From the NCBI GenBank assembly GCA_036785375.1, contig JAWMAR010001356.1, positions 248,001 to 293,931 of the forward strand: a stretch of DNA of 45,931 bases, written 5' to 3'. This document shows, in pieces, positions 2,148 to 28,196 of the stretch (position 1 is the stretch's first letter; the number at the start of each line of letters is the position of its first letter). The notes under the pieces are model-generated. The model ran no database searches. It saw nothing but the letters and a program-made list of their open reading frames with translations, and was not told the DNA's origin. Position numbers and translations under genes: made by a program. This DNA is from Leucoraja ocellata (taxonomy: Eukaryota).

Positions 2148-2186
2148 CGTTGTTGTACGGGTCTGACATTGAATGCTCACACTGTG
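2148..2186 (-). other. V recombination signal sequence, 23-bp spacer
   Basis: CACAGTG (2186-2180) + 23 nt + ACAACAACG (2156-2148). The nonamer matches ACAAAAACC at 7/9 positions. Confidence 0.88.
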
Positions 2187-2490
2187 TCTGTCGCACAGTA
2201 ATAGACAGCGGTGTCTTCGATCTTCAGGTTCCTGGCGATCACGGTGAACATATTATTCGAATTGTCTTTGGACGGAGTAAATCGGCTCTCGATCCCTGGA
2301 GCGAAATGCTTGTTAGAAGAACTGTAGTAGCGAAGCAGCCACTCCAGCCCCTGCCCGGGGACCTGACGGACCAAATGCATCGCGTAGCTGCTAAGAGTGA
2401 ACCCGCTGGTTTTACAGGTCAGTGTGATGGAGCCTCCAGGAACGGCGGTCCCTGTCTTGGGCTGAGTGAGAACGACATCGGAATGGACAC
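2187..2490 (-). CDS. IGHV: Unrearranged VH exon, chondrichthyan IgM-like: (R)[100 protein letters not shown]
   Basis: Open frame with both V-domain cysteines, the GQGLEW and EDTAVYYC motifs, a splice acceptor, and an RSS directly downstream. Isotype is not fixed without the C exons. Confidence 0.93.
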
Positions 2491-2667
2491 CTGCAAGTTA
2501 AAAAAAGGCATGAATGGCGAGGATAAAATATTGACCATTAATCCCCCACTCTAATTATCAATAGGAAATACATTGAGAGGGTTCTAGAGTGGGTAGAAGG
2601 GGAATGGTGTCTGTAGGGGATATGCCACTGACAAATGCGTGAGGAATTTGTCCAACTCATTACTCAC

Positions 2668-18626: not shown

Positions 18627-20182
18627 TGACAATAGACAATAGGTGCAGGACTAGGGCCATTCGGCCCTTCGAACCAGCACCGCCATTCAATGCGATTATG
18701 GCTGATCATCCCCAATCAGTACTCCGTTCCTGCCTCCTCCACATATCCCCTGACTCCGCTATCTTTAAGAGCTCTATCTAACTCTTTCTTGAAAGCATCC
18801 AGAAAATTTGCCTCCACTGACTTATGAGGTAGAAAATTTCACAAATTCACAACTCTCTGGGTGAAAAGGTTTTTCCTCGTCTCCGTTCTAAATGGCCTAC
18901 CCCTTATTCTTAATATGTGCCCCCTGGTTCTAGACTCCCCCAACATCGGGAACATGTTTCCTGTCTTTAGCATGTCCAATTCCTTATATGTTTTAATAAG
19001 ACGCCCTCTCATCCTTCTAAATTGCAGAGTATACAAGCCCAGTCACTCCAGTCTTTTAACACATGACAGTCCCGCCTTCTCTGCCTCCTGCCTCACACAC
19101 TGACTACTTGCTTTCCCTATTTGAGTCCCTCCCCCCAACCATTCTAGTTTAAAATTTCCCCAGTAGCCTTTGCAAATCTCCCCGCCAGGATATTGGTCCC
19201 CCTTGAGTTCAAGTGCAACCCGTCCTTTCTGTACAGGTCGCACCTTCCCCAAAAGAGGCCCCAATGATCCAGAAACTTGAATCCATACCCACTGCACCAG
19301 TCCCTCATCCACTCATTTATCCTCCACCTCGCTCCATTCCTACTCTCACTGTCGCGTGGCACAGGCAGTAATCCTGATATTGTTACCTTTCCAGTCCTTC
19401 TCCTTAACTCTCTTCCTAACTCCCTAAATTCTCCTTTCAGGACCTCTTCTCTTTTTCAACCTATGTCGTTGGTACCTATATGTACCACGACCTCAGGCTC
19501 CTCTCCCTCCCATTTCAGGATTTCTTGGACATGTTCAGACACATCCCTGACCCTGGCACCAGGGAGGCAAACTACCATCCTGGTCTCCTGTCTGCGTCCA
19601 CAGAATCGCCTATCCGACCCCCTGACTATAGAGTCCCCTATTACAATTGCCCTCCTATTTTCCTTACCCTTCTGAGCAACAGGACTGGTCTTTGTGCCAG
19701 AGGCCCGGCCGCTGTCGCCGCCCCCAGGTAGGCTGTCTCCCCCACCCTTACTCAAACATGAGTACTTATTTTCAAGGTGCACAGCCACCGGGGTACTCAC
19801 CAGTCCCTGCCTCTGCCCATTGCCCTTCCTAACTGTGACCCAGTTGTCTGTCTCTCGGGGTCTTGGAGTGACCACCTCCCTGTAACTCCTCTCTATGACC
19901 TCCTCGCTCTCGCTGAGCAGACGGAGGTCATCGAGTTGCTGTTCCAGGTTCCTGACACGGTCCCTTAGGAGCCCATCTCGACGCACCTGGCGCAGATGTG
20001 GACGTCTGGAGGGGTATCAGACTCCATGACCTCCCACATCTGACATCCAGAACAGTAAACTGCCCTGGCCTTCATTCTCCCCCTTATCCTGGATACAATA
20101 CAAAGCCTTACCCGGGATACAAGCCAATAAGTTGCTTCCTCTAGTCTGTTCGACCAATCAGCGGCTTCCTCAAGCCCACTTA
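18627..20182 (-). mobile_element. CR1-type LINE retaining 5' UTR, ORF1 and 3' end, with most of ORF2 deleted (junction ~19075)
   Basis: ORF1 motifs are followed directly by the ORF2 C-terminus and tail. The 5' UTR seems to continue beyond the DNA transposon at 23660-23810. Confidence 0.85.
19144..20075 (-). pseudogene. CR1 ORF1 (Cys-rich finger, coiled coil, SGNH esterase), frameshifted
   Basis: CSGCQMW...CARC; IVIGDSIVRG, CLPGARV, VHIGTNDIG, DGLHLN. Split over three frames. Confidence 0.85.
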
Positions 20183-20290
20183 ATTTGAAGCAAAGATCGT
20201 AGAGGGACAAGATAGACCACTCCTCGAAAAACGCGTAGTATGACGTGTGTGACCGTCGACGCCATATTGTTAAGCATTTATTGGGCTGTA

Positions 20291-20400
20291 ATGGCGTCCT
20301 CAGCTAAATCTTCATCTCACTGCTCCGCTATCAAGTATTCTAATCGTAAATCTAAACGACCCAACCTGTCATTCTTTAGGTTCCCCAATAAAAAAGAAAG
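20291..20400 (+). pseudogene. THAP-domain N-terminal exon remnant MASSAKSSSHCSAIKYSNRKSKRPNLSFFRFPNKKE
   Basis: Matches the THAP pattern CSAxxCxN...SFFRFP with the second Cys replaced by Tyr. Ends at AG|GTGAG. No downstream transposase exons were seen. Confidence 0.7.
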
Positions 20401-20924
20401 GTGAGAAAATATTTTTATTATTTTCAGTCGATATTCTGTCGTGAAAATGGTATTTTCTGTTCTCCCATCAACAGCCATTGGGAAACATTAGTCGGTACAT
20501 TAGAAAGTTCTTAGACTTATTTTTAATAGTTCTTTACTCACCACAATAATAAAGACAATTTTAACACTTCTGTACGTTTTTGGTTTTGTTTTGTAAGGGA
20601 TTAGTCTGCACAATATGGCCCGCGGACACATTAGGTCCAGTGACCAGGAGATTTTTCGAGTCCGAGAATGGGCGGCTGTTACCCATTATATTCCTCGAAC
20701 ATAGGGACATAGCAAACAACACTCACATACATACAAGACATCACAAGCCCGCCGTGAAGAAGGGTGCAATCAAATATTATATAACTCTGCTCTATCATCT
20801 TTGGGTGCAATGGTGGGTCGGGGGGTTCGGTGGCGGCGGCCGCAATCAAAGATACTAGTGGAGCTCTGCTCTATAATCTTTGGTCGGAATGGGACGGCTG
20901 CGCGTTATAATGTGCTATCGTTCC

Positions 20925-21260
20925 ACTCTCCCTCTCCCCCTTCTCCCTCTCCCCCTTGTCCCTGTCCCCTTCTCCCTTCCCCCTTCTCCCTGTCCCCCCC
21001 TTTCCCCTTCTCCCTCCCCCTTCTCCCTCTCCCCCTTGTCCCTGTCCCCCTTCTCCCTGTCCCCCCCCCTTTCCCCTTCTCCCTCTCCCCCTTCTCCCTC
21101 TCCCCCCTTCTCCCTCTCTTTCGATCTCTCTCTCCCCTCCTCTCGATCTCTCGCTCCCCTCTCTTCTCTCGATCTCTCTCTCTCTCTCTCTCTCCCCCTC
21201 TCTTCGCGATCTCCTTCCCTTCCCTCTCTCCCACCCTTCCATCTCTCCCTCCCTTACCTC
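20925..21260. repeat. Polypyrimidine (CT-rich) low-complexity tract
   Basis: CCCCTTCTCCCT-like units and (CT)n. Confidence 0.95.
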
Positions 21261-21554
21261 TTCGTGAGAGTTGGCAGCTCTGCTATGCCTTGGGTCCAAA
21301 AGAGGATAGATAGAAAATACTTAATTGTCTTTGTAAGAAGATTTTAATAAGCTCTTCTACATTTAAGGTAAATTGACATATTAGAGGCAAAACACATTTT
21401 CAATATACAGGTCTCTCCACACAACTGAAAACAATTGCATTTAAGTGATATATCATCCATTGTTCAGGCAAGTAGCACTAGGTTACAATAAACTTCCTGC
21501 ATATTCCAGGAATTCATCTCATAAAAATGGGAGAGGCTTAAATGCATTGTAAAA

Positions 21555-22950
21555 TCATAAATCCATGTTGACTTGGACTAATGCTTTTACTGCTATCCAA
21601 ATGCCCCATTATTACATCTTTAATAATTGACTCCAGCATCTTTCACACCACCAAAGTCAGGCTAACTGGTCTGTAATTCCCCATTTTCTCTCTCGCTCCT
21701 TTCTTGAAAAGTGGGATAGCATTAGCTATCCTCCAATCCACAGGAACTGATCGTAAATCTATTGATCGTTGGAAAATAATAGAAACATAGAAATTAGGTG
21801 CAGGAGTAGGCCATTCGTCCCTTCGAGCCTGCACCGCCATTCAATATGATCATGGCTGACCATCCAACTCAGTATCCCGTACCTGCCTTCTCTCCATACC
21901 CTCTGATCCCCTTAGCCACAAGGGCCACATCTAACTCCCTCTTAAATATAGCCAATGAACTGGCCTCGACTACCCTCTGCGGCAGAGAGTTCCAGAGATT
22001 CACCACTCTCTGTGTGAAAAAGGTTCTTCTCATCTCGGTTTTAAAGGATTTCCCCCTTATCCTTAAGCTGTGACCCCTTGTCCTGGACTTCCCCAACATC
22101 GGGAGCAATCTTCCTGCATCTAGTCTGTCCAACCCCTTAAGAATTTTGTAAGTTTCTATAAGATCCCCTCTCAATCTCCTAAATTCTAGAGAGTATAAAC
22201 CAAGTGTATCCAGTCTTTCTTCATAAGACAGTCCTGACATCCCAGGAATCAGTCTGGTGAACCTTCTCTGCACTCCCTCTATGGCAATAATGTCCTTCCT
22301 CAGATTTGGAGACCAAAACTGTACGCAATACTCCAGGTGTGGTCTCACCAAGACCCTGTACAACTGCAGTAGAAACTCCCTGCTCCTATACTCAAATCCT
22401 TTCGCTATGAAAGCTAACATACCATTCGCTTTCTTCACTGCCTGCTGCACCTGCATGCCTACTTTCAATGACTGGTGTACCATGACACCCAGGTCTCGCT
22501 GCATCTCCCCTTTTCCTAGTCGGCCGCCATTTAGATAATAGTCTGCTTTCCTGTTTTTGCCACCAAAATGGATAACCTCACATTTATCCACATTATACTG
22601 CATCTGCCAAACATTTGCCCACTCACCCAGCCTATCCAAGTCACCTTGCAGTCTCCTAGCATCCTCCTCACAGCTAACACTGTCCCCCAGCTTAGTGTCA
22701 TCCGCAAACTTGGAGATATTGCCTTCAATTCCCTCATCCAGATCATTAATATATATTGTAAATAGGTGGGGTCCCAGCACTGAGCCTTGCGGTACCCCAC
22801 TAGTCACTGCCTGCCTAATGAAGAACTCAACCATATTATGGTCACTCTTGCCCAAGGGGGCAGTACAACAAGATTGCTAACTAACCCTTCCTCATTACTC
22901 AATACCCAGTCTAAAATAGCCTGCTCTCTCGTTGGTTCCTCTACATGTTA
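21555..22950 (-). mobile_element. CR1-type LINE fragments inside the P-like element
   Basis: ORF 21869-22855 fuses endonuclease-region DHNMVEFFIR to [10 protein letters not shown] through a deletion. Tail at 21780. A second fragment lies at 21555-21779. Confidence 0.9.
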
Positions 22951-22952
22951 AT

Positions 22953-23219
22953 CATATGTATAAATATATATGTATGTGTATATATATGCATGTATATGTA
23001 TATGTGTGTATATATGTATGTATATATGTTTATATGTGTGTATGTATGCATATAAATGTATCCATATGTATGTGTGTNNNNNNNNNNNNNNNNNNNNNNN
23101 NNNNNNNNNNNNNNNNNNNNNNNNNNNNNNNNNNNNNNNNNNNNNNNNNNNNNNNNNNNNNNNNNNNNNNNNNNNNNNNNNNNNNNNNNNNNNNNNNNNN
23201 NNNNNNNNNNNNNNNNNNN
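22953..23219. repeat. (TA/TG)n microsatellite followed by an assembly gap (23078-23219)
   Basis: Read directly from the sequence. Confidence 0.95.
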
Positions 23220-23809
23220 CCTTTATGGTTTATGTATATCATCTTACAAGACAAATAAATTAATAGCGATTATTTAAATCAAAGTAGCTTCTGATACATG
23301 AGAATAAACTATTATCTCTAACTTGCCTCTCACACACAGACACACATTCATATAAATATATTAAATATATATACGTTAAATTTAATTTTTGCAGTGTGTG
23401 TTAAAGCAATACAATGCAAGGGAAACTACACAAAGGAGGGGTCTGTTCCCGCTACAAGATACTTGAGGATCTTTGCTTTGGATCAAAGATTATAGCGGAG
23501 CTCTATAATCTTTGCTTTGAATCACAGCGGGTGGAATACCGGAAGTCGAGTGTCGCTGTAACAAATGGCGGCCGTGACGTTCCGTTGCGTACTACACGTC
23601 AGCCCATTGAATTTCGAAGGAGTGGTCTATCTTGTCCCTCTACGATCTTTGATTTGAAGTGTGATCTGCGAATGGAACATTGCAGAGTTGGGTTCCTCCT
23701 CCGTCACCAACAGCTCCTGGGCCTCTGTTGAAACAAGCCCCCGCGCTGGGTTTGTAAACCTACCGCACGGACATCGCTCCTCCCTCACCAACGGCTCCTG
23801 GGCCTCACC

Positions 23810-26739: not shown

Positions 26740-28196
26740 AACGTGTAATCTGAGATCAAACTGCCCACTCATGTGATCTATCTGTTATCTTTTGTACTCC
26801 TATGTTATATCAAATCCATTTTAATTCGCTGCCGTATCGATCAGGTTCCTCGTGTCTTGTCTAAGACTACATGTTCATTAAATCCATGTGGGGAAAACTA
26901 AATTAACTTTATTAACGCCTCACACTAATTGTTTGTGTTTATGTGGCTCTGCAAATACGGTCTTTGTTATCATAAGAGTACGCATTGAATAAATGACAGA
27001 ATGACTAATAGCATAAGGAAGGAATGCATTTAAGATTCTGCCGAATCAGAATATCCCCCCTCTTCTACATTTTCTGTGGCGAAATTATGAATGATGGGCA
27101 AGAGGTCACCATGTAACTGAAAGGAAACATCTGTGTCGGCCGTGCTGCTAAATTAATCAGGCACTTGCAGTCTGCTGCTCAAACACTGAAAACTGTGATG
27201 ATGAATTACAACTAACAAAATAAAAAACTACCTCGCAATCTATATCTCGCAAACTTCCAGCTACCAATCGTATTGATTGCATGCTGCATCATTTCAATTA
27301 AACTGTCAGGAGTATCAATTCTGATCGTGTAAATCCCGGCTACTGTGTTTGATTGGGATTAACTTTCACGTTTACAGTGGGATCAATGTCTCTTAGATTC
27401 TGTATGGAATCTGTTTAGAGATTATCTGACAGAGTTATAAGGTAGTTCATATAGTGGGTATGATTGCTAGTCACACACCACACAGATGAGTAAAAATGTG
27501 TAAAATACCGAATGGATACTCATTATATTCCAGTTTAGCGAAGGCCAGAGGTGTCCACATTGTTCCCCTTTGCACACTGAAGCCGCGTACATGAAATGAG
27601 CGCTTCTGCATGAAGGTCACTGGATGATATAATGTAGGCGTGTGTGAAAATGTAAAACATATCTGGGATGATCAGTGGGGTCTGGATTCCATGTTCTTTA
27701 GCCAGAGCACACAGACGTTTTACAAATCGACAAATGCTGTGATCCATGTGTTTCCCCGCGTATTTTCCTGCACCAGTCATCTCTTTCTGACTATTGTGGT
27801 AGAAATACTCCTTGGGCACATGCACTGCCCTACGCTTATGTTAAACCAATCAACCCTTATGATTTAATCGTCAATTAATTGTATATTTCACATTGTTTTA
27901 GTAAATTAATGCACCGCAATACAACAAAACCAATGATACTTTATTGCCACATGCAGCTAGGTACAGTGAAATTCTTTATTTTTGCATAAAATCTAGTAAA
28001 ATCGCACAGCAGACCTCACCCGAGGTAATGTACAAATAGTCGCCATGTTTCTGGGCCCAAGAAAGTTACAAAATGTTTATTGAACTGACATCAATGACAG
28101 GTCAGTCAAAAGTCAATGTCTTTGCACGGATAGAATCATTCCTTGATTTAACCATTTAATCACAGCTAAGCATTATCGGTACATCTGCTGGAGTCA
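26740..28196 (+). repeat. Copy 1 of a ~1.45-kb duplicated non-coding block
   Basis: Colinear with 39670-41991. Confidence 0.9.

Follow-up and report, generated by a model that had tools for sequence, protein, structure and literature searches.

What sort of event leaves, inside a transposable element, a hairpin of 31-36 bp neatly bracketed by a duplication of its target? The question is raised by three such hairpins (h1, h2 and h3) in DNA of Leucoraja ocellata (contig JAWMAR010001356.1, positions 248,001 to 293,931; this entire stretch of 45,931 nucleotides is the window, and coordinates are counted from its first letter). They lie in a non-autonomous element with terminal inverted repeats (TIRs), the "host", and each is flanked by an 8-bp target site duplication (TSD). 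The answer that we favor, with modest confidence, is that h1-h3 are excision scars of a transposon of the P-superfamily type, related to the host but distinct from it, with end tails longer than the 17 nt of the fly element.

Three end-to-end fusions

20191-23651, no strand assigned: the host, a non-autonomous TIR element whose 3,461 bp take in a gap and inserts of later date; TIR identity 34/34, TSD identity 8/8
20771-20803, plus strand: h1, a 33-bp fusion of two ends, in a decayed state; its identical 8-mers (8/8) lie at 20763-20770 and 20804-20811
20847-20882, plus strand: h2, a 36-bp end-to-end fusion; 8-mers at 20839-20846 and 20883-20890, two mismatches (6/8)
23484-23514, plus strand: h3, a 31-bp fusion of two ends whose 12-bp arms are perfect; 8-mers at 23476-23483 and 23515-23522, one mismatch (7/8)
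23468-23475, minus strand: end-like 8-mer abutting the left TSD of h3, a copy of host TIR bases 1-8

Three TSD-flanked hairpins had been described in an initial annotation of this DNA, and their coordinates, lengths and flanks all proved exact on recheck. A scan of the window blind to family (CA...TG elements of 24-60 bp, arms matching at 9/12 or better, flanks at 6/8 or better) returned six matches: h1-h3, two in a TA microsatellite, and a weak AT-rich inverted repeat of 45 bp at 27891-27935 (flank match 6/8) that is probably due to chance; 40 Markov shuffles yielded a mean of 0.2 matches and a maximum of two. On folding, h3 and h2 give z scores of -6.1 and -3.0; h1 does not fold (minimum free energy 0, z +0.4) and is decayed.

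All three hairpins have the same left/right polarity, for which the chance probability is 1 in 4. In each, the two arms differ from base 13 onward and meet at a self-complementary GC. The right arms of h1 and h2 are common over 19 nt, with one mismatch, and the last five bases of their left 8-mers agree. The ends had been likened to those of the host, and similar they are; since only 8-10 of the first 12 arm bases agree with the host TIR, their source is a related family rather than the host's own ends, and "self-targeting" of the host, as had been proposed, is not an exact description.

Just upstream of the end-like 8-mer that precedes h3 is a stretch resembling the left arm of h2 (23448-23483). 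These end-like pieces are possibly the remnant of a tandem insertion at the same target, or a fourth, older scar; no outer TSD matching them was found.

Empty sites and the age of the insertions

Parts of this stretch are contained in 20 public runs from four organisms; contigs of four of these runs (X1, X15, X19 and X20) were aligned, at 80% likeness, to the segment that holds h1 and h2 (20100-20920). In X1 and X15 the depth summed across the hairpin bins is 59,000-353,000 (depth not being copy number), of the same order as over the rest of the host, and X19 and X20 have contigs with both hairpins. Contigs without hairpins are few (X1 and X15, depth 9-34). At h2, a joint from 20837 to 20882 (X1, depth 9.15) has exactly 44 bases missing, that is, 36 + 8; joints from 20770 to 20882/20883 (two X1 contigs, depth 29.5, and one X15 contig, depth 34.1) keep 22-24 spacer-like letters; and five X20 contigs continue from 20770 into spacer-like letters. 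Some copies carry a C>T variant at 20840 that restores one of the h2 TSD mismatches.

There are, then, empty versions of both h1 and h2, each without the hairpin and one TSD copy and with a single 8-mer kept per site; two of the related sites described below (L040 and L095) have empty counterparts as well. Since such host copies exist, h1 and h2 are true insertions that duplicated 8 bp, acquired by an ancestor of an amplified subfamily; and since most of the contig depth contains them, they are old events that did not take place at this locus but were multiplied along with the host. Empty sites prove insertion, not the prior presence of a longer element. The scar TSDs have drifted more than the host ends, with mismatches at 3 of 24 positions vs none of 42 in the host TIR plus TSD (p 0.044). 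Loose ends at hairpin centers, which would mark a host copy still carrying the parent, were absent among the 21 listed (there are 238 more), and this is no evidence either way.

An identical deletion of 37 bases with three filler letters (20799-20837), extending from inside h1 to just before h2, is present in contigs of X1 and X15.

The same ends in other animal DNA

Metagenome contigs were scanned for the two exact 12-base arms of h3 at most 20 bases apart (no more than 44 bp in total). At least 120 loci have these 12-bp ends; among the matches listed they reduce to 91 sites, to which the counts below refer (L014 and L035 are one site, so that the true count is 90; L121 is excluded from all counts; L011, probably a chance match, is kept in the 91). 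The loci are animal DNA, with isolated Pfam matches of exon size to laminin N, mitochondrial ATP synthase d, COX17 and signal peptidase; they have nothing in common with the window except the hairpin, and only 7 of the 91 sites share their flanks with another site.

Here the TSD is 7 bp long: it is exact at 48 of the 91 sites and has at most one mismatch at 67 (random pairings, 10/2000), and an 8-bp duplication within two mismatches occurs at none of them. Empty paralogues of L040 and L095 are without 41 + 7 and 32 + 7 bases, respectively. TSD position 2 of the target is T and position 6 is A, and the match to ANAGT, the half-site of a palindromic target motif, is 1.83 in 48 sites vs 1.07 +/- 0.09 (0/2000 as high). 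A length peak near 30-36 bp with variable centers had been named as what would favor footprints, and a broad spread of lengths as what would count against them: the centers do vary (68 different ones among the 91 sites), but the lengths spread over 28-44 bp (44 being the scan maximum), with peaks at 41 (17 sites), 37 (14), 35 (9) and 32 bp (8).

Bases 13-19 sort the sites into five families. Exact prefix-plus-suffix joins of family A ends make up 32 of the 91 sites, and 25 of these 32 are made at a 2-base self-complementary overlap (null 22%); when the forms that define the family A 24-mer are set aside, 14 of 16 joins still fall at 2-nt microhomology (null 31%, p 4e-6). The retained arms are 15, 16, 19, 20 or 24 bases long. 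A model in which the arms are trimmed independently fits the five commonest GC joins (20 hand-tallied sites, p 0.54) and leads one to expect about three unseen 46-bp sites per 20 GC joins in family A. The 41-mers (17 of the 91 sites, in four families) are all built as 19+3+19, with the loop GAA (9), AAA (7) or AAT (1); the four that were folded form perfect stems (z -9 to -12.5). Counts of 41-mers and 37-mers are 6 and 13 in family A, 5 and 0 in family B (p 0.011). Decay of CpG as the source of the AAA loops was considered and rejected, just 2 of 22 being decayed at a control CpG.

A few sites are more complicated. L019 and L080 each unite, in opposite orientation, loop bases that belong to two different ends. 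L032 has a 99-bp compound scar (220-318) in which a 15-base end, 47 bases of filler and a whole 37-mer lie within one 7-bp TSD; the traceable part of the filler is an inverted copy of the upstream flank. In L038 (104-159) and L106 (286-341), a 15-base partial duplicate of the end is followed by a 41-mer, again inside one 7-bp TSD. The mixed loops of L019 and L080 and the filler of L032 are marks of double-strand-break repair.

How the hairpins might have arisen

How, then, might two transposon ends come to be fused within a single TSD? The following sequence of events would suffice: 1) A longer parent would have inserted three times in ancestors of the host, at targets of the type used by the host itself. 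2) Its transposase would have cut one strand deep within each end, leaving long 3' single-stranded end tails on the flanks. 3) The tails would have been trimmed and joined at the 2-nt self-complementary GC, to give 18+15-2 = 31 (h3), 18+20-2 = 36 (h2) and about 15+20-2 = 33 bp (h1). 4) The scarred host would then have multiplied. The tails would have been at least 18-20 nt long here and about 24 nt in the sister families with 7-bp TSDs, longer than the 17 nt of the fly.

Host and scars share a target preference: T is found at TSD position 2 in 7/8 of their half-sites and at position 3 in 7/8 (p 8e-4 each, post hoc, for four sites). P makes 8-bp TSDs, and 1360 and Galileo make 7-bp TSDs (PMC3698922; here and below, PMC numbers stand for extracts of the papers); one end motif with TSDs of both sizes therefore fits the P superfamily. 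From TSD size, ends and target motif we infer membership in that superfamily; the depth of the cut is an inference too. Read from sequence, the 7-bp TSDs, the target motif, the 68 centers and the joins at 2-nt microhomology together make up what appears to be the signature of end-joined scars of the P-superfamily type. The proposal that a P-type element had been inserted and excised thus stands as far as TSD-flanked insertions of two transposon ends, the empty sites of h1 and h2 and the variable microhomology centers carry it; no larger parent was found in the sequences searched.

Footprints of the fly P element retain about 15-17 bp per side. In the fly, P transposase makes its second-strand cut 17 bp into the TIR (PMC7776569), so that plain end-joining leaves at most 17 per side. 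Is that what is seen here? The 31 bp of h3 fit 17+17, as do the 28- and 30-bp classes of related sites; the 36 bp of h2 do not, and h1 probably exceeds the limit per side. Arms of 19-24 nt are retained at related sites, and 63 of the 91 sites are longer than 34 bp (47 of 67 among those with a good TSD). With these lengths and the 19-nt arm common to h1 and h2, the hairpins lose the standing that the initial annotation had given them, as fossil evidence of the 17-nt cut. Either the cut was deeper (some 20 nt here, some 24 nt in the sister families), or a few bases were recopied in repair. The deeper cut is favored because no family A site has new sequence past base 24 within reach of the scan (an arm of 25-31 nt joined to one of 15 nt would fit the 44-bp limit; the seven long sites without an exact explanation were read by eye).

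A number of considerations weigh against excision scars with deep cuts: 1) A longer parent with these ends was found neither in the window nor in 264 kb of related loci. 2) P transposase and THAP domains were absent from 195 Pfam-scanned frames (50 + 145: 50 of the 68 locus frames of at least 130 aa, 136 of the 289 frames of 85-132 aa, and 9 frames of the window). 3) The uniform 19+3+19 41-mers would need a covarying mini-hairpin in each parent end, and it is simpler to regard the 41-mer as the unit; for random joins the 19+3+19 form would be strange, whereas it follows naturally when the hairpin is the unit, or when a tail folds back on a mini-hairpin and self-primes repair. 4) The different ratio of 37-mers to 41-mers in families A and B is not predicted by independent arms. 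5) Deletions within one master 41-mer would likewise end at microhomologies. 6) The ends of the parent were deduced from the very scars, which makes the 24-nt arm partly circular; for the vertebrate, arm lengths come from three elements, all decayed; and the right arm of h2 could have been borrowed from h1, 44 bp away. 7) The scan for related sites stopped at 44 bp and required exact 12-bp ends. 8) The empty contigs may belong to sister subfamilies.

The search for the ends was also carried into viral and prokaryotic DNA. One scan of viral contigs gave no hairpins; another gave one match, in a gene-dense contig, with neither hairpin nor partner; further viral scans gave five and seven matches, judged to be chance, none with a paired TIR. 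Prokaryote genomes gave none in one scan and, in another, 24 matches, near chance expectation and mostly within open reading frames (ORFs), none of them with a paired TIR and TSD. Among open-licence papers, neither a natural series of P-type footprints nor these ends were found described.

Some of the related loci contain other elements. L073 has a separate element of 1,088 bp (274-1361), flanked by an 8-bp TSD of its own and containing a hAT-type (DUF4371) frame that is broken; it was considered as the parent and rejected. L002 (1601-1971, 371 bp), L028 (1054-1380) and L072 (3184-3510; 327 bp each) hold unrelated elements with 8-bp TSDs that resemble MITEs (miniature transposable elements with inverted repeats). 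Single ends of other repeat families with similar CAA-GA starts occur in L019, L022, L061 and L073; neither a paired end nor a TSD was found for them.

Alternatives

Might the parent and its excision be retained and the deep cut given up? In that case, cuts of 17 nt or less would have been followed by abortive gap repair, a few bases being recopied from the sister chromatid or from a neighboring scar before joining at microhomology. Such a course is the accepted origin of internally deleted P, Ac and Tc1 elements and of MITEs (PMC3814204), and P donor sites are mended by homologous recombination (HR) as well as by non-homologous end-joining (NHEJ; PMC7776569). It accommodates h3 and the 28- and 30-bp classes, which lie within 17+17, and templated synthesis is visible in L032 and in L038 and L106. 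Repair tracts should scatter widely in length, however, whereas family A has no new sequence beyond position 24, and arms of more than 17 are in the majority. We consider this account somewhat unlikely.

A more radical suggestion dispenses with the parent: the hairpins would be mobile micro-elements in their own right, perfect stems of 33 or 41 bp with a purine triloop, moved by a P-type transposase, and the shorter forms would be center deletions and slippage products of a palindrome. The perfect 19+3+19 structure of the 41-mers, recurring in four families, speaks for this, and so does the failure to find a parent in the sequences searched; h1 can be read as a decayed 15+3+15 form, and the excess of 37-mers in family A fits slippage by 4 bp. 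The 68 different centers speak against it. In families A, C and D both types of loop turn up again, more often than CpG decay would allow; this is to be expected if the left end differs from the right at that base. L019 and L080 combine the two types. P transposase requires internal binding sites beyond the TIR (PMC7776569), for which 41 bp is too small, and long elements with related ends do exist, the host being one. Micro-elements accordingly strike us as unlikely.

One might instead see in the hairpins fixed subterminal motifs that belong to the host, or in h2 a copy made locally from h1, and do without separate insertions altogether. This might be argued from the presence of h1 and h2 in most contig depth of all four runs, from their common 19-nt arm and from the shared ending of their left 8-mers, but is very improbable, and for h1 and h2 largely refuted: hairpin-free copies keep exactly one 8-mer per site, the two targets differ, and identical ends stand at unrelated TSD-flanked sites in other animal DNA, few of which share flanks. 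A fixed family motif with no larger parent had been named at the outset as the finding that would count against scars, and something of it is seen, in the prevalence of h1 and h2 and in the missing parent.

Comparison with known transposons

Placed beside known systems, the excision scars that we favor are most readily set against those of Drosophila P, which has 8-bp TSDs, TIRs of about 31-34 bp, ends starting with CA and repair by NHEJ or HR, and whose donor site keeps TIR bases, the second strand being cut inside the element (PMC7776569); the end sequence differs, and the arms here are longer than 17 nt. The related loci share 7-bp TSDs with 1360/Hoppel/ProtoP and Galileo, the latter sometimes making 8 bp (PMC3698922, PMC4168063), and share with 1360 and P the ANAGT half-site (PMC4168063), with T at TSD position 2 and A at position 6. 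Unlike them, Galileo has very long TIRs and a higher target specificity in these accounts, and the vertebrate family, with its 8-bp TSDs, differs from both 1360 and Galileo. Among open-licence papers no footprint series was found for 1360 or Galileo. The start of the 1360 TIR presumably resembles these ends; searching did not confirm it, and it is offered as a lead only. CA-starting TIRs also occur in other superfamilies, and a CA start by itself is weak evidence.

Zebrafish Pdre2/THAP9 is a vertebrate P-like element with 8-bp TSDs and CA-starting TIRs whose excision has been shown in cells; its TIRs are of 13 bp and of other sequence, and flanking deletions are reported (PMC10983969). The MITEs Gnome, Elf, Goblin and Made1 likewise consist of two parent ends joined at microhomology after excision, but through 6-8 bp of it and as homogeneous mobile families (PMC3814204), unlike the 2 nt, the 28-44 bp and the site-to-site variability seen here. 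The homogeneity of size and sequence by which MITEs are defined (PMC3698922) is lacking in the hairpins as a whole, the 41-bp class coming part of the way.

What of the hAT elements, whose TSDs are also of 8 bp? Along with MULE elements, they cut by way of hairpins on the flank (PMC5499845), so that their scars are flank bases, in contrast to the TIR-like arms between intact TSDs found here; the mechanism does not fit, because flank hairpins would not leave TIR arms.

Implications

No trait of P transposase is more unusual than the 17-nt stagger, which is established for the fly enzyme (PMC7776569). Scars of this kind would allow the depth of the cut to be read from genomes, family by family; those described here point to a longer stagger in a widespread lineage, with 8-bp-TSD members in a vertebrate and 7-bp-TSD members in other animal DNA. 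Such a stagger predicts a 46-bp class and a ceiling on the arms near 24 nt, and the scars offer a substrate for biochemistry. One can think of them as rare germline repair events, frozen and then multiplied by having landed in a transposon that was later amplified; motifs amplified with a transposon in this way are therefore open to being mistaken for functional subterminal repeats. Should perfect purine-triloop hairpins of 33-41 bp be moved as such by a transposase of the P/1360 type, which we doubt, few cut-and-paste passengers would be as small, and they would occur in animals, a vertebrate among them; short of that, there would be a P lineage cutting about 20-24 nt inside its ends.

The host element and its setting

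20183-20190, plus strand: left 8-bp TSD of the host; twin copy at 23652-23659
20191-20224, plus strand: left 34-bp TIR of the host
20926-21261, no strand assigned: CT-rich simple repeat within the host
21555-22952, minus strand: fragments of long interspersed nuclear elements (LINEs), which we take to be of the CR1/L2 type, inserted in the host and not scar material; ORF at 21869-22876 (minus); repeats elsewhere in the window
23078-23219, no strand assigned: assembly gap of 142 N, after a TA-rich repeat in the host
23618-23651, minus strand: right 34-bp TIR of the host

The host is a non-coding TIR element: none of the six internal frames tested has a Pfam match, and the host has no Rfam match. 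Because the 5' part of a LINE ORF1-like frame adjoins it (19456-20190; frames at 19456-20016 and 19965-20303, minus strand), its insertion site is probably a LINE 5' region. Just inside both TIRs are clusters of promoter-like motifs (20241-20265 and 23539-23601), presumably ETS-, YY1- and CRE-like; open chromatin at such motifs could be a reason for the repeated targeting of the host.

The window is jawed-vertebrate DNA in which an antigen-receptor V segment lies among many LINE fragments. The V segment (2177-2497, minus strand) is open and matches antibody V domains; after it comes a recombination signal made up of a heptamer, a spacer of 23 bases and a non-consensus nonamer.

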